DNA of 28,265 bases from an uncultured Candidatus Saccharibacteria bacterium (GCA_964646295.1 CAZYED010000001.1:22527-50791), one strand, 5' to 3'; counted from the first letter of the stretch, positions 4,663 to 21,494 are shown. Notes: generated by a model not told the origin, from the letters alone. Numbers and translations: made by a program.

Positions 4663-6018
4663 ATGGAGAAAGCATCAGAACAAAACTTCGTATCAATGGA
4701 AAAGATCGTGAGCTTGGCCAAGCGGCGCGGCTTTGTCTTTCCCGCGTCCGAGATATATGGCGGGCTTGCTGGTACATGGGACTATGGGCCTTTGGGCGTG
4801 GAGCTCAAAAACAACATCAAAGAAATGTGGTGGCGGAGATTTGTGCGTGCCCGCGACGACATGGTGGGGATTGATACTGCAATCGTGATGAATCCGAAAG
4901 TATGGGAAGTATCGGGCCACGTCGGCGAATTTACCGATCCTCTGGTAGAGTGCAAAAAATGCCATCAGCGTTTTCGCGCCGATCAGACGGACGAATGGAC
5001 GGGACATTACGCGCGGGAGCATGGCCGGGCGGCAGAGGACGCGGATTTTTCCGAAGCGCGGAATTTCAATCTTCTGTTTCGCACATTTGTCGGCCCGGTG
5101 GAGGATTCCGCAAGCCAGACATACTTGCGTCCCGAAACTGCGCAGGGGATGTTTGTGAATTTCAAAAATATCACGGATACCATGCGCCATACTCTGCCTT
5201 TTGGTATCGCGCAGATCGGCAAGGCATTTCGCAACGAAATCACTCCGCGCGACTTCATCTTCCGCTCCCGCGAATTTGAGCAGATGGAAATAGAGTATTT
5301 TGTCCGCGAGGCGTCATGGGAGGATCACTTCGCGCACTGGCTCAACGAAATGCGCGCGTGGATCAGCGATATGGGTATCAGTATGGAGCGCGTGCATGAG
5401 CTTGAAGTGCCGGACGGGGAGCGCGCGCACTACTCAAAGCGCACGGTTGATTTTGAGTATGATTTTCCGTTTGGTAAAAAAGAACTGTACGGCCTCGCAT
5501 ACCGGGGCGACTTTGATCTCAAAAATCACTTCAAAGAGCCGCCGTATCGCGAGGAGGGCGAGGAGCCGTTTTATCCGCACGTGATTGAGCCGACATGGGG
5601 CGTGGATCGTACGGTGCTTGCGGTTTTGCTTGAGGCGTATCGTGAGGAAGAAAGCAAGAAAGGAAAGCGCGTATATCTGAAACTGCCGCCACGTCTGGCG
5701 CCCTACAAAGCCGCCGTATTTCCTCTGGTATCAAATCGTCCGCAGATCGTGGAAAAAGCAAATGAGGTGTGCAAGGAGCTCAAAGCGGGGGGGTTCAGTG
5801 TCGCATGGGACGCGCGCGGCAACATCGGCAAGCGTTATTATGCGCAGGATGAGATCGGCACTCCCTACTGTATCACGGTAGATTATCAGACATTGGAAGA
5901 CGGTACCGTGACAGTGCGCGATCGCGACACGGCAAAACAGGAACGCATAGCCGTGTCGGAATTGGCAAGGTTTTTAGCAGAAAAAACAAAGGGATCAATC
6001 TCAAACGCCACGCAATAG
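4663..6018 (+). CDS. glyQS: Glycyl-tRNA synthetase, homodimeric class II type
   Basis: KRRGFVFPASEIYGG, WDYGPLG, YLRPETAQG, motif 2 QIGKAFRNEITP, EQMEIEYF, and anticodon domain IGKRYYAQDEIGTPYCITVD. Confidence 0.97.
   Translation: MEKASEQNFVSMEKIVSLAKRRGFVFPASEIYGGLAGTWDYGPLGVELKNNIKEMWWRRFVRARDDMVGIDTAIVMNPKVWEVSGHVGEFTDPLVECKKCHQRFRADQTDEWTGHYAREHGRAAEDADFSEARNFNLLFRTFVGPVEDSASQTYLRPETAQGMFVNFKNITDTMRHTLPFGIAQIGKAFRNEITPRDFIFRSREFEQMEIEYFVREASWEDHFAHWLNEMRAWISDMGISMERVHELEVPDGERAHYSKRTVDFEYDFPFGKKELYGLAYRGDFDLKNHFKEPPYREEGEEPFYPHVIEPTWGVDRTVLAVLLEAYREEESKKGKRVYLKLPPRLAPYKAAVFPLVSNRPQIVEKANEVCKELKAGGFSVAWDARGNIGKRYYAQDEIGTPYCITVDYQTLEDGTVTVRDRDTAKQERIAVSELARFLAEKTKGSISNATQ
5917..5942 (+). 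repeat. 26-bp direct repeat, left copy (inside glyQS 3' end); right copy at 10842-10867
   Basis: CGCGATCGCGACACGGCAAAACAGGA is identical at both positions and begins with the 10-bp palindrome CGCGATCGCG. Confidence 0.92.
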
Positions 6019-6087
6019 CCGTGCAGATTTGGATTTATCCATCATCGTGTTGCCAACTTTCTGGAAATGTTGGTCTTTATGCGTCTC

Positions 6088-6116
6088 TTGCGCTCAATAT
6101 CCTTTTGCGCTACATT
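6088..6116 (+). promoter_or_regulatory. Predicted sigma70 promoter in the CRISPR leader
   Basis: TTGCGC(6088-6093)-17 bp-TACATT(6111-6116), 31 bp before repeat 1. Confidence 0.6.
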
Positions 6117-6147
6117 CCCAAAAGCTCTTTGATAGGCCCAAGGCGCT

Positions 6148-7728
6148 GTCTAAGAGTTACCCTATGAGAGGGAGTGTGTAAACGGGCGTAAACGGGCTTT
6201 GGGTCGTTACCCATCTGCGTCTAAGAGTTACCCTATGAGAGGGAGTTGCAAACTTCTGATGCTGGCAGTGATCCATCGCGGGTCTAAGAGCTACTCTCTG
6301 AGAGGAAGTGTGTAAACGTGCGTTGGCTTCCCTAATCTTATTCTTCTAAGAGCTACCCCATGAGAGGATGTGTTGAAACCATTATTGGCCTCCATGTGAG
6401 ATGTGTCAAAGAGTTCCTCATGAGAGGAGGTGTTGAAACGGCTTTTCTCCATCCTGCTAATACAGGTCAAAGGGCCACCTCATGAGAGGGAGTATGCAAA
6501 CGTGTGGTTTCTTTTTCTTGACAATTGTCTAAGAGTTGCCCCATGAGAGGGAGCATGCAAACAGGTGGTCCGTCTCAATCAGCATGGAATCTAAGAGCTA
6601 CTCCATGAGAGGGAGTATGTAAACAGGAGATTCTTCAAGCCGTCGAGGGGTCTAAGGACTACCTTATGAGAGGGAGTACGTAAACGAGCAGTCGGGTTTT
6701 GGCAGATTGAGTCAAAGATGAGAGGGAGCATGTAAACACGCTCTCAAAAAACTTGATGCCGTATCTAAGAACTACCCCATGAGAGGAAGTGTGTAAACTT
6801 GTAAACGCTTCCGTGCCACACATGTCCAGGAGTTACCCTGTGAGAGGGAGCATCTAAACCCAACAGCCGTAATGAGTAGCCCCGTCTAAGAGCCACCTTG
6901 TGAGAGGGAGCGTGTAAACCAACACACTTTTACCACGGAGGCTATGTCTAAGGACTACCTCATGAGAGGGGGCATGCAAACGCGGGATGTTCTCGTGGGT
7001 CGCCTTGGTCTAAGAGTCATCCCATGAGAGGAAGTGTGTAAACGCGTATCGGTGTGCTCGATTGAGAAGTCCAAGAGTTACCCCATGAGAGGGAGCATGG
7101 AAACGACCGAGCCTTCGACTTCCCACGCGAGTCTAAGAGCTACCCCATGGGAGGGAGCGTATAAACAATAACTTGTGTATCATTCGTGTAGAGTTAAAGA
7201 GCCACCTCATGAGAGGAAGTGTGTAAACAGGAGCGCACCGTACCAAAACAATTACGTCTAAGAACTACCCAATGAGAGGATGTATTGAAACCGGACAACG
7301 TCAGCATGCTCTTGAGATCAAAAAGTTGCCATATGAGGGGGAGCGTGTAAACGCCTAAAAACAGAAGGCGACCAAATTGTCTAAGTCTAAGAGTTCCCCT
7401 ATGGGAGGGAGCATGTAAACAAGTCCTCTGATCGTCCGCCATCCCATGTCTAAGAGTCACCCCATGAGAGGGGCATGTAAACCGTCGTCCGAGTCGCAAC
7501 GAGTTTGCAGTCTAAGCGCTACCCTATGAGAGGAAGTGTGTAAACTATAACGTCCTCTGCAAGGTGTCTGGTCTAAGAGTCATCCCATGAGAGGGAGCAT
7601 GTAAACATAGCCCTGACAGGAGAGAGTTACCAGTCTAAGGATTACCTCATGAGAGGGAGAATTGAAACGACGGCAATGGGTGGGGTCCTCAGAGTCTAAG
7701 AGTCACCAATGAGAGGAGGTATTGAAAC
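6148..7728 (+). CRISPR. CRISPR array: 26 degenerate ~36-bp repeats and 25 spacers (24-28 bp, one of 35 bp)
   Basis: Approximate consensus GTCTAAGAGYTACCYCATGAGAGGRAGYRTGTAAAC with a ~61-62 bp period. Repeat starts: 6148, 6219, 6282, 6344, 6405, 6466, 6527, 6589, 6650, 6711, 6763, 6824, 6884, 6946, 7008, 7069, 7131, 7193, 7256, 7317, 7385, 7448, 7510, 7571, 7633, 7694. All end in AAAC. Confidence 0.96.
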
Positions 7729-7756
7729 CTGGCTTACCATGAAGAGTAGCCAACAT

Positions 7757-7916
7757 TAAATTTTTTGAGCCCTGTCTCCGCGAGGAAGACAGGGCTCTTT
7801 TCATGAGAGGAAGCTTTTATACCCGACCGGTAATCCGGTCGGGGGATTGGCCGTTGAAACGATTTTAAAGCGGCCAATGGGCTTCTCTGTACGATACTAC
7901 CTATACAAGGAGCTTG
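7757..7916 (-). ncRNA. Predicted tracrRNA (boundaries approximate)
   Basis: Lies downstream of a canonical promoter. Contains stems at 7846-7878 and 7822-7843 (9-bp perfect), an anti-repeat at 7802-7822 complementary to the repeat 3' half, and the 7767-7797 hairpin. Confidence 0.72.
7767..7801 (+). terminator. Intrinsic terminator-like hairpin downstream of the array
   Basis: Perfect 11-bp stem GAGCCCTGTCT/AGACAGGGCTC (7767-7797) followed by TTTT on the + strand. Confidence 0.6.
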
Positions 7917-7922
7917 GGGAAA

Positions 7923-7951
7923 AAGATAGCTCAATCACGTTATCTTGTCAA
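7923..7951 (-). promoter_or_regulatory. Predicted sigma70 promoter for the tracrRNA
   Basis: Minus strand TTGACA(7951-7946)-17 bp-TATCTT(7928-7923). The -35 box lies in the last codons of the cas gene. Confidence 0.7.
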
Positions 7952-10513
7952 GGGGTTGGGAGCATCGGTATCCGGCGTGCGCCTGATCAAAGATATGGCG
8001 CGCCACGCCAGATTGATCGCGGCCAGCACGTCGGACTGTCCGTTGAATCCGCATCGGTGGCAAAAAAACTGCCCCCATTGCGGTTGCGGCTCAAGCGCAA
8101 GCCCGAGCAGTTGTCTGCTCTTGTGATCGTCCCCTTGCCGGATCGCTCGCTCAAGGTCTTCCAATGTCCCCCGCACGACGCGATGATAACGCGGAGTCAG
8201 CCGGACCCACTCCCTGCTAAGCGTAAAAAGTTCCCCGAAATCCACAGTGCCTGCATCGCAATCCACGTTGTCAAACCCCGTTGCGGCCGCGTCATCCACG
8301 ATATCGGGAATGACTACCATGGTATCGCGGTGTCCGGGATTTTTCGGTCGTCTCGCAAGCCAGGCGGTTCCGCACTGTGTGCAGGTGCGGGAGATGCCGC
8401 CCGGATAAATTTCCATCAGACCTCCCCATGGGTTGTCTTTTTTGTCAATGCGGACCGCGCCGGCAAAACTCAACGCGTCCACAAAGCCCGTTTTGTTGGC
8501 AAGATAGGTCTTTTTGGAAATAATCTTTTGCTCCCTGCCATGGAACCGGTCATCCAGCCGTTCTATCGCGAGGATACCTTTCCAAAATGCGACCAGTGAA
8601 TGGATCTTTGCCCGGGCGCTTCCCAAAACCGTATCCTGCAGGTGTCGGACCTTTTGGCGTAAATCGCGGGGCGGGGTTTGTTCGCGGGATTGGTACTCGC
8701 TGATCCGGCGTCTGGTCTCTATCAACCGGTCTATGTACTCCTTTTTGCCGAGAATACCCTCCTCAAGCACCCGGCCATCCTCTACAGACACCACGGCATA
8801 GGCAAGCGGATTGACCTCGCCGCGGTTTATCCCGATGACGGTGCGGGCGCGGGAATGCACATCGGAGGAGAAATCCAGATACCCCACCGGCGGAGGTCCG
8901 CTGATGACCATATGGAAGAATAACGTCCACTGGTCTTGGGGATTTCTTTTTTTCCCCACCAGCTTGGCGTTGGAGGCGAATACGCGCGGATTATCCGACA
9001 AGAGGCCCCACGTTTTATTGGTGAGCATCTTGCGCGCCTGCGATCTGCCGAAATAAAGGCGGAGTTTCAGCGCTACACCGGATGCGGGGTACTCGTCAAA
9101 AGATCCGGGTACCCATGTGATCTCTTTGTCCGGATTGTCTTTGCCTCGTCTGCCGCCGGTCGGTCTCATATAGATCAAATCTCCTCCTTTTTCTCTGATA
9201 GAGAATGCGGCGGGTGATGGGGAAAGACAGATATATAACTCCAGGGCATCGGCCGGAGTGTCGGCGTCTTTGGCAAGCGCCATGCCGTATTGAGGCGCGG
9301 GATTGGTCCGGTTGCTCGCCCACGAAAATCCTTCAAACGGGGCCGATATTGTCTCGGCTCGCACTCTTCTGCTTGCCGCATTGCTCCGGAGGAACTGGAT
9401 CTCGGTCCACCGGTCAGGATGCGCAAGCGTCGCGCGAAAGGAAAGGATATCCATGTATCTTGCCCTGATCTGGCTGTCAAAGGGCGCGCGGGCAAATCCT
9501 TGACGGCGCTTTTCGCATACCCGATCAATTTCGCCGAGGAAATGTCCGGCGACCGTTGACGGATCTTCTTCGGGGTTCCTCTCCATACGGATAGCACAGT
9601 ACAGAGCGACTCGTTGGGGCAGTGGCACGGCGCTTCCGAGTTTCCGGCGCACAGCCTTGTGCCTCACGCGATGGATATAGCCGAGGGTTTCGGCGGTGTG
9701 TGGTCTGACCTTTGCCATATCTTCCAGTTGCCGGATGATTACCATGGTATCCGGCGGCGTCCCGCGCTCGGCAATGGGAAATTTCGGAAGGTCGTTGATC
9801 CGCCCATTGAAAAATCGGAGGCGGGGCGACTCCCCGGTTTCTTCCGGCTCGTCCGCTTTCGCAAGGGCTGGAAGCATCTGATTGAGCGCGTAATTGTACG
9901 CGCCTTTCAGCACGTTTGTCTCTGCAATGAGCGCCCGGAATGCGCAAAGCGCGCCAAAATCCGCCGTCACCGCATCATACTCGGGCGCCAGACAGGTGGT
10001 GAGGCGGGTACGCAGGGCGTTGACAATGTCGGCCCAATCCATGTCCGCCGCATCCCGGAGTAACGCCTCATTGGCCTCCAAACACTCGGCGTATTCCCGC
10101 ATTTTCTTCCGGCCTTCCTCAAAAAGCCGTCGGTGGTTGGTGTGGAATGCGGCCATTGCGCCTTCGGCCTCGTGTCGCATTGCCGTAAAAACGGCAGATG
10201 TCATGATCGCGGGGTCAATATCGCGAAGGCCGTCAAGCACGGGCCTGCCTTTAAAAAATGTCTCGTATGAGAATTTTTCTTTCAGGTAGGCAAGGGGATT
10301 TTCTTGGAAATGCGCATAGAGCATTCCATAGAGTCTCTCACGCGCGGCCTCTGTCGCGGCAAACCATCGCTCTATGATGGCGTATTGCCTCTTTGTCGGT
10401 TTTATGCCAAAAGAGAATACGCGCGTGACTTGTCCGGGGATGACCCCGAAGTGATCGCTAATACGAGTCGTGTTGACCAAGGATTTGGTACTGGGCTTAT
10501 GCGCGTCGTCCAC
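7940..10513 (-). CDS. cas12: Type V CRISPR effector, CasX/Cas12e-like (857 aa), with RuvC-I Asp replaced by Asn; predicted nuclease-impaired
   Basis: TnpB-like N-terminus (RVFSFGIKPTKRQ), RuvC-I VIGINRGEVNP, RuvC-II ILAIERL (E651), split Zn ribbon CTQC (711-714) and CHRC (818-821), RuvC-III QSDVLAAINLA (D828). GTG start with SD AAGGAG; adjacent to the array. From memory it closely resembles the Ca. Sungbacteria 'CasX3' sequence in CasX patent filings (not verified). Confidence 0.9.
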   Translation of the reverse strand: MDDAHKPSTKSLVNTTRISDHFGVIPGQVTRVFSFGIKPTKRQYAIIERWFAATEAARERLYGMLYAHFQENPLAYLKEKFSYETFFKGRPVLDGLRDIDPAIMTSAVFTAMRHEAEGAMAAFHTNHRRLFEEGRKKMREYAECLEANEALLRDAADMDWADIVNALRTRLTTCLAPEYDAVTADFGALCAFRALIAETNVLKGAYNYALNQMLPALAKADEPEETGESPRLRFFNGRINDLPKFPIAERGTPPDTMVIIRQLEDMAKVRPHTAETLGYIHRVRHKAVRRKLGSAVPLPQRVALYCAIRMERNPEEDPSTVAGHFLGEIDRVCEKRRQGFARAPFDSQIRARYMDILSFRATLAHPDRWTEIQFLRSNAASRRVRAETISAPFEGFSWASNRTNPAPQYGMALAKDADTPADALELYICLSPSPAAFSIREKGGDLIYMRPTGGRRGKDNPDKEITWVPGSFDEYPASGVALKLRLYFGRSQARKMLTNKTWGLLSDNPRVFASNAKLVGKKRNPQDQWTLFFHMVISGPPPVGYLDFSSDVHSRARTVIGINRGEVNPLAYAVVSVEDGRVLEEGILGKKEYIDRLIETRRRISEYQSREQTPPRDLRQKVRHLQDTVLGSARAKIHSLVAFWKGILAIERLDDRFHGREQKIISKKTYLANKTGFVDALSFAGAVRIDKKDNPWGGLMEIYPGGISRTCTQCGTAWLARRPKNPGHRDTMVVIPDIVDDAAATGFDNVDCDAGTVDFGELFTLSREWVRLTPRYHRVVRGTLEDLERAIRQGDDHKSRQLLGLALEPQPQWGQFFCHRCGFNGQSDVLAAINLAWRAISLIRRTPDTDAPNPLTR

Positions 10514-10841: not shown

Positions 10842-10928
10842 CGCGATCGCGACACGGCAAAACAGGAGCGGATAACGGTGAAAGGGATTAATATGTATAC
10901 ATCGAAAATAAAAACTAAAAGTGATTAA
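10842..10928 (+). pseudogene. Second copy of the glyQS 3' end
   Basis: Reads RDRDTAKQERITVKGINMYTSKIKTKSD*, versus RDRDTAKQERIAVSELARFLAEK in glyQS; no start codon or upstream glyQS sequence. Confidence 0.82.
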
Positions 10929-10940
10929 GAGGAAATAGTT

Positions 10941-11210
10941 ATGACGCCCCTTCTCTATCTCTTGCTTAATATATGCCTAATTCTACTTGCCGTTATACCC
11001 ATAGGTGTGGTCATCCCTGATTATCCTCTTAGTTATTTTGTAACGTATAAAGGCCCATGGTTCTATATACGTATTGGCAATAGACTTGTTGTTGGAAATA
11101 TGAGACGAAGACACGATCTGCCTCCATTTAACTATAAACGTCGTATAATCTATTCTCTTATAACGGCAAATCTAATCTTTCTTATGTTACAATATCTTCC
11201 CTTCTCTTGA
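10941..11210 (+). CDS. Small hypothetical membrane protein (AT-rich)
   Basis: 89-aa ORF with SD GAGG and two hydrophobic segments. Confidence 0.5.
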   Translation: MTPLLYLLLNICLILLAVIPIGVVIPDYPLSYFVTYKGPWFYIRIGNRLVVGNMRRRHDLPPFNYKRRIIYSLITANLIFLMLQYLPFS

Positions 11211-11228
11211 AGAGTAATGTCAATATAA

Positions 11229-11591
11229 ATGAATCAACTTATGAATTTTTTAAAGAATCGAACCTATAGACTCTTAGCCGTAGAGTTGGTTCTTTTGGAT
11301 TTGATCCTATCGGTCTTCGGTTCTTTTTTCGCCCTGGATGGCTCACCGCAATTCATAGTAGATATTATGGGATTTCTCCTTAACATACTTTTCTGGTTCG
11401 GTATACCGGTATTTATCGTGTATCCCCCCATTTACTTAATAAAAAGAATGAGGGCAAAAAAGAATCTTGACAGGGAGGCATTTTATGCGTTGTATGGAGT
11501 ATCAATGCATCAGATATTGACGATCATATTTCTCCTCTTTTTATTGCCAATGTTCATACTGCCAACCCTGAACGTAATCTTATTTTGGTAA
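11229..11591 (+). CDS. Hypothetical membrane protein (AT-rich, about 3 TM)
   Basis: 120-aa hydrophobic ORF whose stop abuts the M16 start. Confidence 0.6.
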   Translation: MNQLMNFLKNRTYRLLAVELVLLDLILSVFGSFFALDGSPQFIVDIMGFLLNILFWFGIPVFIVYPPIYLIKRMRAKKNLDREAFYALYGVSMHQILTIIFLLFLLPMFILPTLNVILFW

Positions 11592-12869
11592 ATGTTTATG
11601 TTTAAAAAAACCACATTAGAAAACGGATTGCGCATTATTACCGCTCCTATGGTCGGGACCAATACCGTGACGGTACTGGTGCTGTGCGGTACGGGATCGG
11701 ATTATGAGGCGCGGGAGATCGGAGGCATCTCGCATTTTTTGGAGCACATGTTTTTCAAGGGCACGAAGAATCGCCCGACGCCGGATCATATCAAGCATGA
11801 GCTTGACGGCATGGGGTCCATCTCCAATGCGTTTACGAGCCATGAAATCACGGGCTATCACATCAAAGCCGCCAAGACCTATCTTGATCAGTCGCTTGAC
11901 CTGCTCGCCGATATCTACAAAAACTCTCTTTTGGCGGAGGAAGAAATCAATCGCGAGCGGCAGGTGATCATAGAGGAGATGCACAAAGACCGCGACACGC
12001 CGACGCTATTTGTCTGGTGGGTGTGGGAGCGGCTCCTGTACGGAGACCAGCCGGCCGGATGGGACGTCATCGGAGAGGAAAAAGTGATCCGCGCGCTCTC
12101 GCGCGATGATTTTGCCAATTACTTCACGCACCAGTATGTCGCGTCCAACACCGCGATCGTGATCGCGGGCAATTTTGACCAGGACGCTACGGTTGCCCGC
12201 GCGCGAGAGCTTTTTGGCGATCTGCGATCGGCTCCGCCCATGCGGACGAAGCCCGCGGTACGCGATATACAAAACGGCATCGGGCTTGACCTTGAGTATA
12301 AGGAGACGGATCAGACGCATATCACGCTCGGATTTCGCGGATATGACGCAAATCACCCCAAGCGCTATATCGCGGAAGTGCTTGCGGCCCTGCTCGGAGG
12401 ATCGTGGAGTGCCCGTATGTGGGATCGCATACGCGACAAGCTTGGCCTGGCATACACCGTGATGACGGCGCATGAATCGTATTCAAACCGCGGATATCTT
12501 GTGACGTATGCGGGCGTGGATCACGCCAATGTGGAGAAGACGATCCGCGCGGCTCTGGAGGAATATAAACGCATGACCGTGGAGCCGGTTTCGGCGGCCG
12601 AGCTCAAGCGCGTCAAAGACTATATGCGCGGCACGACCCTGATCGGCCTTGAGCAATCCAATGCGGTGGCAAATTTCATCGGGGGAGAGGAGATGCTGAC
12701 GGGCAAGCCCCAGACGATTGATGAGGTGTTTGCGAAGATTGACGCGGTAACGCCAGAAGATATCCTGATGGTATCGCGCGAGCTGATCCGCCCCGAGGCT
12801 CTCAATCTTGCCATGATAGGGCCCGCCCGCGATCGTGCGCCTTTTGAACGCATCTTGAAAGAACTATGA
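11592..12869 (+). CDS. M16 family zinc peptidase (pitrilysin-like)
   Basis: Inverted zinc motif HFLEH in GISHFLEHMFFKGT; NAFTS; IRDKLGLAY. Confidence 0.93.
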   Translation: MFMFKKTTLENGLRIITAPMVGTNTVTVLVLCGTGSDYEAREIGGISHFLEHMFFKGTKNRPTPDHIKHELDGMGSISNAFTSHEITGYHIKAAKTYLDQSLDLLADIYKNSLLAEEEINRERQVIIEEMHKDRDTPTLFVWWVWERLLYGDQPAGWDVIGEEKVIRALSRDDFANYFTHQYVASNTAIVIAGNFDQDATVARARELFGDLRSAPPMRTKPAVRDIQNGIGLDLEYKETDQTHITLGFRGYDANHPKRYIAEVLAALLGGSWSARMWDRIRDKLGLAYTVMTAHESYSNRGYLVTYAGVDHANVEKTIRAALEEYKRMTVEPVSAAELKRVKDYMRGTTLIGLEQSNAVANFIGGEEMLTGKPQTIDEVFAKIDAVTPEDILMVSRELIRPEALNLAMIGPARDRAPFERILKEL

Positions 12870-18389: not shown

Positions 18390-21300
18390 ATGCGTTATCA
18401 TCCTCAAAAAATAGAGAAGAAATGGCAGGCTCGCTGGCTTAAGGAAAAGACATACGAGCCCGATCTCAAGCGGGCAAAAAAGCCTTTTTATAATCTCATG
18501 ATGTTTCCGTATCCCTCCGCGGAGGGGCTTCATGTGGGCAATATGTATGCGTTTACGGGGTCTGACATCTACGGCCGCCTGAAACGGATGCAGGGATACG
18601 ACGTATTTGAGCCCATTGGTTTGGACGGATTCGGGATCCACTCGGAAAACTACGCGATCAAAATCGGCGCGCATCCGATGAAGCAGGCGAAGATCTCCGA
18701 AAAGAATTTTTATCGCCAACTTGCCATGATCGGCAACGGATTTGCGTGGCGCGAGCATCTGGAGACCTATGACCCCGAATACTACAAATGGACGCAGTGG
18801 ATCTTTATCCAAATGTTTAAGCAAGGCCTTGCATATCGCAAGAAGCAGGCGGTCAACTGGTGCCCATCGTGCAAGACGGTACTGGCCGACGAGCAGGTGA
18901 TCGCGGGCAAGTGCGAGCGATGCGGATCCACGGTGATCAAAAAAGAGCTTGAGCAGTGGTTTTTCCGCATCACCAAGTATGCGCCGCATCTTTTGAAAAA
19001 TCTCCAGACGCTTGACTGGTCAGAGCGCGTGAAGATCGCACAGCGCGAATGGATCGGTCGGAGCGACGGAGCCATGATTTCTTTTGAAATCCGTCGCTCC
19101 GCGCGGAATGTCACAGACAGAACGCAGAATATCGCAGAAAATGTTCAGCGTGATTCTGCGTCAAGTCAGCGAGAATCTGCGACGTTGACAACAGTCAACG
19201 TATTTACGACGCGGCCCGATACATTGTTTGGCGCGACGTATCTGGTCGTGGCGCCGGAGCATGTGGTGATCAGGAATCAGGAATCAAGAATCAGGAATTA
19301 TGGAGAGGTCACGAAATATGCGGAGCAAGCGCGGGGCAAGGCGGAAGCGGACAGGATTGCGGAGGGGCGGGAGAAGACAGGGGTTGAGCTGAAAGGTATC
19401 AAAGCGATCAATCCCGCAAACAATGAAGAGATACCGATCTTTGTCGCGGACTATGTGCTCGCAGGATATGGTACGGGTGCCATCATGGCAGTACCCTCAC
19501 ACGACGGGCGCGATCTGGAGTTTGCGCGAAAGTACGGGATTCCCGAGCGCACAGTGATCGTGCGACAGAGCATGAAGTGCGTACTGGTACACGGATGCCC
19601 CGCCAAACCGGAAGATAGGGTGGACGTGACAAAAGCGAGCGACAAGCATTGGATCCCGTGGATGAGGGAGCAGATGCAAAAGAATAAGATTCGGGTATTT
19701 ACGCCCCTTATGCCGGAGCCCTGGAAGCCCGACTATGCGGCATGGAAGAAAGAATTTGAAAAAATACCGGTGGATGAAAATACCGTGGTTGTGGGGCACA
19801 GTTGCGGCGGGGCATTTCTCGTCCGGTGGCTTGGAGAGACGCAGAGGAAAGTGAAGAAGCTGATTTTACTCGCCGGAGCGAAAATTCCGGCGGATGATGC
19901 GAACGAGGTTATACGCAATCTGTATGATTTTGATATTGACCCGCGTATACGCGACAACGTCGGCGAGATCGCCGTCTTGATTTCCGATGACGATGAGGAG
20001 CGACACAGAAAGTCAGCCGTACTGTACGCTGAGGCGCTCCACGGGAGGCTCGTGAAGTTTAAGGGCAAGGGGCATTTCCTTTTCAAGCAGATGGGGACGA
20101 ATGCCCTTCCGGAGCTTTTTGACGAAATTTTGAAGACCGCCGATGCATATACGGAAGGCGGCACGGTGGTAAATTCCGGGACGTTCAATGGCATGGACTG
20201 GCAAATGGCCAAAGGGGAAATTACCAAGTCTGTAAACGGAAAACTTGTAACGACATATCATCTTCGCGATTGGCTTGTATCACGCCAGCGCTACTGGGCG
20301 CCGCCGATTCCGATGATCTTCTGCGATGCATGCGCGGCGGCGAAAAGGGGCGAGCGCGCCGAAATGCCCGGATGGTATACGGCTCCCGCCAAAACCCTGC
20401 CGGTAAAGCTTCCGTTTATCAAAAACTTCCGTCCCACGGGGAGCGATCAGTCGCCGCTTGCGGGTGTGGCGAAGTTTTACCGCGTCCGGTGTCCCGCCTG
20501 CCGCGCGTGGGCGCGGCGCGAGACAGATGTCTCGGATACGTTTTTGGATTCGGCATGGTACTATCTGCGGTATCCCAGTGTCGGCGACAAAAAATACGCA
20601 TGGAATCCCGCTATTACAAAAAAATGGCTTCCGGTGACGCGCTATATGGGAGGTGCGGAGCACTCGGTACTGCATTTGCTCTATGTGCGGTTTTTGGCGA
20701 TGGCCCTGCACGATGCCGGGCTGGTGGATTTTGAAGAGCCGATGCCGACGTTTCGCGCGCACGGCCTCATCATCAAGGATGGCGCCAAGATGTCCAAATC
20801 CAAAGGGAACATCATCAATCCCGATGAATATATCCGCGCCTACGGCGCGGACGCGCTCCGCATGTATCTCATGTTTTTGGCGCCATGGGAGCAGGGGGGG
20901 GATTTCCGCGACGCGGGTATCAAGGGGATCACGCGGTTTTTGGAAAGAGCATGGAAGTTTGCGGATGCCAGACTGCAGACCGCAGATACGTCGCAAGTCT
21001 TAAACCCCGATGTGCAGATGCTGATGCACAAGACCATCAAGAAAGTAGGCGAGGATATAGAAAATCTGCAGTACAATACGGCGATTTCGTCGCTTATGAT
21101 ACTGTTGAATACAATTGAGACATCGTCCGATGCAGTGAGCCTTGAGGATATAAAAGTATTTTTGAAACTGCTCGCGCCTTTTGCTCCTCATATCACCGAG
21201 GATCTCTGGCAACGACATCGTCCTATAACCTACAACCTACAACCTACGATCTTTCGTTCAATTCATCGTGAGCCGTGGCCGGAGTATGATCCGCGTATGA

Positions 21301-21494
21301 TAGTTGAGAAGACGTTTGAGCTCGTGGTGCAGGTGAATGGCAAAATGCGCGGCCGTATCACTCTGCCCGCGGGGGCTGGCGAGGCGCAGGCCGTGGCCGC
21401 GGCGCGCGGGATGGACACCGTGAGACCGTATCTTATTTCCGAGCCGCGCAAAGTGATCTTTGTTCCGGATCGTCTCATCAATTTTGTCACGTAA
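18390..21494 (+). CDS. leuS: Leucyl-tRNA synthetase with an inserted alpha/beta-hydrolase domain
   Basis: MFPYPSAEGLHVGN, FTTRPDT, GTGAIMAVPSHD, DW..SRQRYW, DTFLDSAWY and KMSKS. The insertion spans 19572-20135. Confidence 0.96.
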   Translation: MRYHPQKIEKKWQARWLKEKTYEPDLKRAKKPFYNLMMFPYPSAEGLHVGNMYAFTGSDIYGRLKRMQGYDVFEPIGLDGFGIHSENYAIKIGAHPMKQAKISEKNFYRQLAMIGNGFAWREHLETYDPEYYKWTQWIFIQMFKQGLAYRKKQAVNWCPSCKTVLADEQVIAGKCERCGSTVIKKELEQWFFRITKYAPHLLKNLQTLDWSERVKIAQREWIGRSDGAMISFEIRRSARNVTDRTQNIAENVQRDSASSQRESATLTTVNVFTTRPDTLFGATYLVVAPEHVVIRNQESRIRNYGEVTKYAEQARGKAEADRIAEGREKTGVELKGIKAINPANNEEIPIFVADYVLAGYGTGAIMAVPSHDGRDLEFARKYGIPERTVIVRQSMKCVLVHGCPAKPEDRVDVTKASDKHWIPWMREQMQKNKIRVFTPLMPEPWKPDYAAWKKEFEKIPVDENTVVVGHSCGGAFLVRWLGETQRKVKKLILLAGAKIPADDANEVIRNLYDFDIDPRIRDNVGEIAVLISDDDEERHRKSAVLYAEALHGRLVKFKGKGHFLFKQMGTNALPELFDEILKTADAYTEGGTVVNSGTFNGMDWQMAKGEITKSVNGKLVTTYHLRDWLVSRQRYWAPPIPMIFCDACAAAKRGERAEMPGWYTAPAKTLPVKLPFIKNFRPTGSDQSPLAGVAKFYRVRCPACRAWARRETDVSDTFLDSAWYYLRYPSVGDKKYAWNPAITKKWLPVTRYMGGAEHSVLHLLYVRFLAMALHDAGLVDFEEPMPTFRAHGLIIKDGAKMSKSKGNIINPDEYIRAYGADALRMYLMFLAPWEQGGDFRDAGIKGITRFLERAWKFADARLQTADTSQVLNPDVQMLMHKTIKKVGEDIENLQYNTAISSLMILLNTIETSSDAVSLEDIKVFLKLLAPFAPHITEDLWQRHRPITYNLQPTIFRSIHREPWPEYDPRMIVEKTFELVVQVNGKMRGRITLPAGAGEAQAVAAARGMDTVRPYLISEPRKVIFVPDRLINFVT
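19102..19181. repeat. In-frame palindromic repeat element inside leuS
   Basis: Four CGC(A/G)GA-like units followed by four complementary TC(T/A)GCG units, each at about 10-bp spacing. Confidence 0.65.

Follow-up and report, generated by a model that had tools for sequence, protein, structure and literature searches.

A Cas12e (CasX) homologue from groundwater Sungbacteria carries a natural asparagine at the RuvC-I catalytic position and may act as an RNA-guided DNA binder

Does a Cas12e (CasX) effector that carries asparagine in place of the first catalytic carboxylate of its RuvC site still cut DNA, and if not, what might it be kept for? This question is raised by a 28,265-nucleotide stretch of DNA (CAZYED010000001.1:22527-50791; the whole stretch is called the window here), in which a cas12e open reading frame (ORF) is accompanied by an array of clustered regularly interspaced short palindromic repeats (CRISPR). 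The product of this ORF is a Cas12e homologue, as curated profiles and the predicted fold agree. The NCBIfam equivalog for Cas12e/CasX (NF045604) matches residues 27-840 with 681 bits at a cut-off of 200, and the PADLOC Cas12e model scores 1281 bits against the protein. A search of the PDB with the single protein sequence returned weak Cas12a matches only and missed CasX, whereas the same search with the family profile retrieved dVemCas12e, dLesCas12e, dPlmCasX and DpbCasX with E-values from 1e-144 to 1e-101. An AlphaFold2 model of the protein (mean predicted local distance difference test score, pLDDT, 83.3) led Foldseek to the same four Cas12e structures as its top matches (8xyc, 7way, 8y2i and 6ny2; E 1e-22 to 1e-17, template modelling score 0.52-0.63). 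The host of the gene is one genus of Candidatus Sungbacteria, within the Candidate Phyla Radiation (CPR), from groundwater.

The codon in question is AAC, at 8827-8825 on the minus strand, and encodes Asn at residue 563 (N563) in the context GTC ATC GGG ATA AAC CGC GGC GAG GTC AAT CCG (VIGINRGEVNP). The RuvC triad of the window protein thus reads N563-E651-D828, and the D-E-D triad of Cas12e is incomplete. A preliminary description of the locus, made from the sequence alone, had reported this codon within an uninterrupted ORF and had noted that E651, D828 and four zinc-finger cysteines are retained. All of this was borne out by our analysis, and the retained residues (E651, D828, C711, C714, C818 and C821) were found to occupy invariant or near-invariant columns of a 22-sequence family alignment. 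The same description had equated N563 with the residue mutated in dCasX, which the solved structures confirm: at this column the PDB chains of dVemCas12e, dLesCas12e, dPlmCasX and DpbCasX read IG(I/V)ARGE, the Ala being A672 in DpbCasX. Since the Ala in the Vem and Les chains is engineered to give dead forms, wild-type Vem and Les carry Asp, and every solved Cas12e has Asp at this column in its wild-type form. Cas12a aligns GIDRGE to the GINRGE of the window protein. Within the family alignment, Asp is present in 20 of the 20 other representatives, which include the Plm/Dpb-like branch, the Vem/Les-like branch and a Cas12a-like outlier. Two-metal catalysis by enzymes of the RNase H fold depends on the first carboxylate, and RNase H, RuvC and retroviral integrase become inactive when this Asp is replaced by Asn.

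The preliminary description had suggested that the Asn might be a conserved trait and not a sequencing error, and the data agree with this. Logan contigs from three groundwater runs span the N563 codon with 0 differences (X1, 8736-9322; X2, 8610-8842; X3, 8824-9130); this support comes from assembled contigs, not from raw reads, and one of the runs may be the source sample. A word-based search of 5.8 billion clustered proteins found a sole close homologue, P0002, which is the orthologue from a sister species (Candidatus Sungbacteria bacterium RIFCSPHIGHO2_02_FULL_52_23). P0002 is 90% identical to the window protein and has the same VIGINRGEVNP motif, the same AAC codon and the same genomic site. 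Twelve contigs encode it, and the six that were fetched represent six different samples. The check for Asp in close homologues, or for GAC in the data, yielded Asn and AAC in P0002 and AAC in the run contigs. Judged by this shared codon, the substitution had occurred before the two species diverged.

HMMER, run exhaustively on 1.84 billion representatives, produced 29 relatives. This search turned up P0010, a fragment of 59% identity whose 547-bp contig does not reach RuvC-I, and no intermediate state was seen. In a maximum-likelihood tree the two Asn-bearing proteins form a monophyletic pair (support 100/100) inside an Asp-bearing clade, adjoining P0005 and P0006, and the stem of this pair measures 1.54 substitutions per site, compared to 0.5-0.8 for its neighbours. 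D563N is thus real, fixed in two species and derived from Asp-bearing ancestors.

The Asn lineage has also changed at other positions. Four of the 29 near-invariant columns are altered in it (S122A, D563N, T707I and R810Q), while the 18 other representatives show 0-2 such changes each; A827S concerns a less strict column, with Ala in 18 of 19 relatives. The Arg that was replaced by Q810 is present in the Plm, Dpb, Vem and Les Cas12e proteins. In Cas12f, R490 precedes the RuvC-III Asp by 20 residues and is part of the active site, and cleavage is lost when this Arg is mutated to Ala (PMC8053092); from the position of the motif we infer that the Q810 column is equivalent to R490. The earlier portrayal of an otherwise intact site consequently holds for E651, D828 and the cysteines, but not for the invariant Arg and the Thr of the TS motif, which are gone in the same lineage. 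With these two residues lost as well, the case against cleavage is strengthened and the catalytic centre would be more degraded than N563 alone suggests.

The effector gene is nonetheless constrained. Compared to the sister orthologue, the ratio of nonsynonymous to synonymous divergence (dN/dS) is 0.23 for the whole gene (dS 0.20, dN 0.047) and 0.35 over the RuvC and TSL part, the synonymous divergence between the two species being 0.20-0.34. The region between the array and the cas12e stop codon folds strongly (z = -6.0) and contains a putative trans-activating CRISPR RNA (tracrRNA), for which Rfam gave no match to any known RNA family. The core of this RNA (7754-7882) has no listed difference between the two species, and the listed differences start at 7883. 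The 26 repeats of the array are unusually diverged for a CRISPR array, with a mean pairwise identity of 78% (range 58-92%), the conserved parts being GTCTAAGAG at the 5' end, the core ATGAGAGG and AAAC at the 3' end. All 13 positions of the anti-repeat (7814-7802, minus strand) pair in 19 of these repeats when G-U pairs are allowed, and 11-12 positions pair in the remaining seven. As the variation among the repeats preserves this pairing, their drift is filtered by pairing with one tracrRNA; the pairing also assigns the CRISPR RNA (crRNA) to the plus strand and the tracrRNA to the minus strand. By these comparisons the cas12e protein, the tracrRNA and the repeat:anti-repeat pairing are all under purifying selection.

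Some details of the array and its surroundings deserve mention. One repeat (6711-6737) is shortened by the loss of 9 nt, and the first spacer, 35 nt in length, includes a GTAAAC copy of the repeat end. The interval from the last repeat to the anti-repeat contains a perfect 13-bp hairpin (7765-7800), with TTTT behind it on the plus strand; it could serve as a terminator of the array transcript or, on the minus strand, as the end of the tracrRNA.

The array of the sister species occurs in two forms in different samples, one with 4 repeats (L001, L002) and one with 6 (L003-L006), and two further loci (L021, L022) show a two-hit pattern that matches the 4-repeat form. When the two forms were compared (L001 12540-13140 versus L003 6690-7415), the two extra units were located at the glyS (leader) end, between three identical 38-nt repeats. 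This arrangement reads as the signature of polarised acquisition, and because both species carry N563 the two extra units would have been made after the substitution. Alternatively, units made after the substitution may later have been deleted in some strains. One spacer (window 6860-6883) is common to both species with 1 difference in 24, a single case which hints that guides are retained between species. None of the 25 window spacers and 5 sister spacers has a match longer than 16 nt elsewhere in the 864-kb genome (92.5% complete); a self-regulatory role of the spacers, which was also considered, is unsupported, there being no host-genome match beyond chance. Metagenome and genome scans with the 21-nt repeat core found further arrays of the window repeat type in the sister species only.

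The locus consists of leader, array, tracrRNA and cas12e only. P0005, the closest Asp-bearing relative, has cas4-cas1-cas2 directly downstream. No cas4-cas1-cas2 genes were found in the window, no Cas1 in the window genome and three others of the genus (G000-G003), and no Cas1 in the sister-species genome (87% complete). By this comparison, D563N was accompanied by the loss of cas4-cas1-cas2 from the locus. Two matches in the window genome were rejected as adaptation genes, one to a Cas2 profile (G000:C25:9816-9932; 24.2 bits, positions 4-39 of 74, in a 200-aa frame) and one to a Cas4 domain (G000:C4:14130-14504; 24.4 bits, in a 484-aa frame). Both are marginal, lie far from the array and probably represent unrelated nucleases. 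No second CRISPR array was found in the genome. As regards the origin of the module, two copies of a 39-nt direct repeat, 90% identical to each other, bracket the array and cas12e, and in a genome of the same genus without cas12e (G003) glyS directly adjoins the M16 peptidase gene, a junction that looks like the empty site. The gene is present in 2 of the 201 genomes searched (the window genome and 200 relatives). The bracketing glyS repeat, the empty site and this distribution imply that the module entered by insertion in the ancestor that the two species share; the module itself has no recombinase gene.

Based on these data, we favour the view that the window protein is a naturally cleavage-impaired, RNA-guided DNA binder, and we assign this view a probability of roughly 0.55. 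Asn at the first carboxylate, together with the lost Arg and Thr, makes efficient DNA cleavage by the RuvC site unlikely, as judged from the sequence and from what is established about RNase H-fold enzymes. The purifying selection seen for the protein, the tracrRNA and the repeat pairing, along with spacer gain after the substitution, argues for a working RNA-guided system. The RuvC site would thus no longer cut DNA efficiently, the effector would be kept as a DNA binder guided by tracrRNA:crRNA, and the bound effector may block transcription or replication of invading DNA, as reported for Cas12m. As the host genome has no match to any spacer, the targets are presumably foreign. Plasmids are suppressed by Cas12m without being cut, and branches of Cas12 that have become inactive are known (PMC10691335); the window gene likewise combines an altered catalytic site with purifying selection on the effector, as in a binding-only, Cas12m-like system.

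Several observations weigh against this view. The gene is known from two species only, which makes the evidence from conservation shallow. Searches for exact matches to four spacers among viral contigs, and to the shared spacer among genome contigs, returned the array itself only; with no protospacer found, no protospacer-adjacent motif (PAM) can be derived and targeting is unproven. The sister array gains spacers though Cas1 is undetected. Further, E651, D828 and the Cys4 zinc finger are kept and the RuvC region is constrained (omega 0.35), which would also fit a working but altered nuclease. Lineage-specific acidic residues (E808, D654 and D655) are found beside the catalytic motifs, and rearranged RuvC sites that retain activity are known in TnpB and Cas12, as is a non-canonical RuvC-I in V-U24 (PMC10691335).

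The alternative that survives best builds on the latter points and holds that nucleic acid is still cut by an altered or rearranged site, in which the Asn itself or a relocated carboxylate (E808 or D654/D655) would support a weak, nicking, Mn-dependent or RNA-processing activity. The ongoing gain of spacers, in so far as it suggests working immunity, speaks for such an activity as well. The retention of E651 and D828 by itself carries little weight, because at a dS of about 0.2 two neutral codons would, by our estimate, stay unchanged about 1/3 of the time. Moreover, RNase H, RuvC and integrase are generally known to lose their catalysis when the first carboxylate changes from Asp to Asn, and here two more invariant residues of the nuclease lobe are lost. 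We regard an altered nuclease as possible, if rather unlikely. A bolder form of the binder view would see in this locus a dead CasX with a living CRISPR memory, in which, after the loss of the cutting site and of cas4-cas1-cas2, spacers are still acquired at the leader end, protection or regulation comes from RNA-guided DNA binding alone and, in a 0.86-Mb CPR genome, the integrase is borrowed in trans or unrecognised; this is speculative, and we consider it unlikely.

It is improbable that the effector does not act alone and binds DNA in order to recruit a partner machine, e.g. a transposase, as in the case of Cas12k. Elsewhere, dead lineages of Cas12 and TnpB are coupled to partners (PMC10691335), and the 3' end of glyS is duplicated in an att-like manner around the module itself. 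However, both species have only cas12e, tracrRNA and array in common at the locus, their neighbours there are housekeeping genes, no TniQ was found in the genome, tnsB, tnsC and tniQ are not beside the effector, and two small ORFs at 10941-11591 are missing from the sister locus. The view that the system is a decaying relic, stripped of its nuclease and its adaptation genes and now without function, is likewise improbable. The absence of cas1, cas2 and cas4, repeats that are only 78% alike, the degraded catalytic site and the long stem branch could be taken as signs of decay, but the 857-aa ORF is intact in two species at a dN/dS of 0.23, the tracrRNA core is identical between them, the repeat variation respects the anti-repeat pairing and the sister array recently gained units. 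Nor does a missing adaptation module in itself imply inactivity, because OpbCas12e lacks one and still cuts (PMC11685505). Lastly, the chance that AAC reflects a sequencing or assembly error is practically negligible, since contigs from three runs agree on the codon, and the sister species, represented by six fetched contigs from six samples, shares it.

Compared to the type V-E effectors DpbCas12e and PlmCas12e, the window protein is of the same family by profile and fold, with IGxxRGE, ExL and xxD RuvC motifs, a Cys4 finger in the TSL, a tracrRNA and a downstream array. It differs from them in being about 120 aa shorter and only ~19% identical, in having Asn for the RuvC-I Asp and Gln for the Arg, in the lack of cas4-cas1-cas2 and in its strongly diverged repeats. 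VemCas12e, LesCas12e and OpbCas12e are likewise compact and of a size similar to the window protein, and the OpbCas12e locus also has no adaptation module and has its tracrRNA between cas12e and the array (PMC11685505). The eight Cas12e orthologues characterised to date, Vem, Les and Opb among them, are all active in DNA cutting and in plasmid interference (Li et al. 2024, PMC11685505). Wild-type Vem and Les have Asp and became dead in the PDB forms through engineered Ala, whereas the Asn of the window protein is natural. The adjacency of cas4-cas1-cas2 has been described as a stable association of Cas12e (PMC10691335); given the active OpbCas12e without it, this adjacency is not strictly defining for the family.

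Among other Cas12 lineages, Cas12m (V-M) is a type V effector that interferes without cutting its target, from a locus without a full adaptation module, and the window protein would resemble it in this. Cas12c, with a locus of the same kind, also interferes without cutting target DNA. Both belong to Cas12 lineages other than Cas12e and have no Cas12e-type tracrRNA. In V-M, catalytic residues were lost gradually (PMC10691335). The window system would also resemble Cas12k, of the V-K CRISPR-associated transposons (CAST), a Cas12 in which the nuclease is dead by nature and which comes with a tracrRNA and a short array. Cas12k, however, is part of a Tn7-like transposon that also carries tnsB, tnsC and tniQ, and the window locus has none of these genes. 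Engineered dCasX (D672A/E769A/D935A) is substituted at the same RuvC-I column; it is man-made, with three carboxylates changed to Ala, whereas in the window protein one carboxylate became Asn, in addition to the Arg and Thr changes.

The gene itself is not new, as public databases contain the protein and Cas12e profiles recognise it. A survey of inactivated Cas12 lineages names V-A, V-K, V-F, V-M and V-U, and V-E is not named there (PMC10691335); our literature search found no publication that links Sungbacteria to CasX/Cas12e. CasX is a leading compact genome editor, and mutation of this very Asp is how it is inactivated for use in repression and base editing. If the favoured view is true, type V-E would join the Cas12 lineages (V-K, V-M and some of V-A, V-F and V-U) that evolved from cutters to binders, and the present case would be a binder of 857 aa with its own tracrRNA and no obvious partner protein. 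A comparison of the wild type with N563D, Q810R and I707T revertants would then show which residues are needed for Cas12e catalysis. The locus also raises the question of how an array grows in a genome without detectable Cas1.

Table 1. Coordinates of the features of the cas12e locus, counted from the first nucleotide of the window.
Feature	Position	Strand	Remarks
39-nt direct repeat, copy 1	5917..5955	+	inside the 3' end of glyS
Leader	6019..6147	+	~95% identical to the sister species; new units of the sister array added at the leader end
CRISPR array	6148..7729	+	26 repeats of ~36 nt, 25 spacers mostly of 25-27 nt
Putative tracrRNA	7754..7951	-	promoter-like site 7951-7923 (at chance level), two hairpins, anti-repeat 7814-7802, terminal hairpin
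cas12e (CasX-like) ORF	7940..10513	-	857 aa, uninterrupted; GTG start at 10513, from which N563 is counted
D828, RuvC-III Asp, kept	8030..8032	-	preceded by S827, where relatives carry Ala
Zinc-finger cysteines C711, C714, C818, C821	8051..8383	-	TSL insert between the pairs
Q810, in place of an Arg invariant in the rest of the family	8084..8086	-	motif PR..Q..F.C before the second CxxC
I707, in place of the Thr of the TS motif before the first CxxC	8393..8395	-	Thr in 20/20 relatives
E651, RuvC-II Glu, kept	8561..8563	-	invariant family column
Codon AAC, N563	8825..8827	-	column of the RuvC-I catalytic Asp
39-nt direct repeat, copy 2	10842..10880	+	remnant of the glyS 3' end

The window as a whole is a housekeeping region with ileS, recO, glyS, M16 peptidase, metG, tatD, leuS and tsaC-like genes. 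The two small ORFs (10941-11210, 89 aa, and 11229-11591, 120 aa) have no family matches and lie in a low-GC stretch (10881-11591) that is absent from the sister species, where cas12e and the M16 gene are about 340 nt apart. The N-terminal 130 aa of the M16 protein (window 11592-12869) are 88-96% identical to those encoded in G003 and G002 (L012, L014), whereas the adjacent GlyRS (4663-6018) is 57-58% identical, a discordance which suggests recombination near the insertion site. Finally, the LeuRS gene (18390-21494) encodes an inserted serine-hydrolase/alpha-beta-hydrolase domain (Pfam Ser_hydrolase, residues 415-575) after the editing domain, and the LeuRS of the sister species gives the same Pfam matches.

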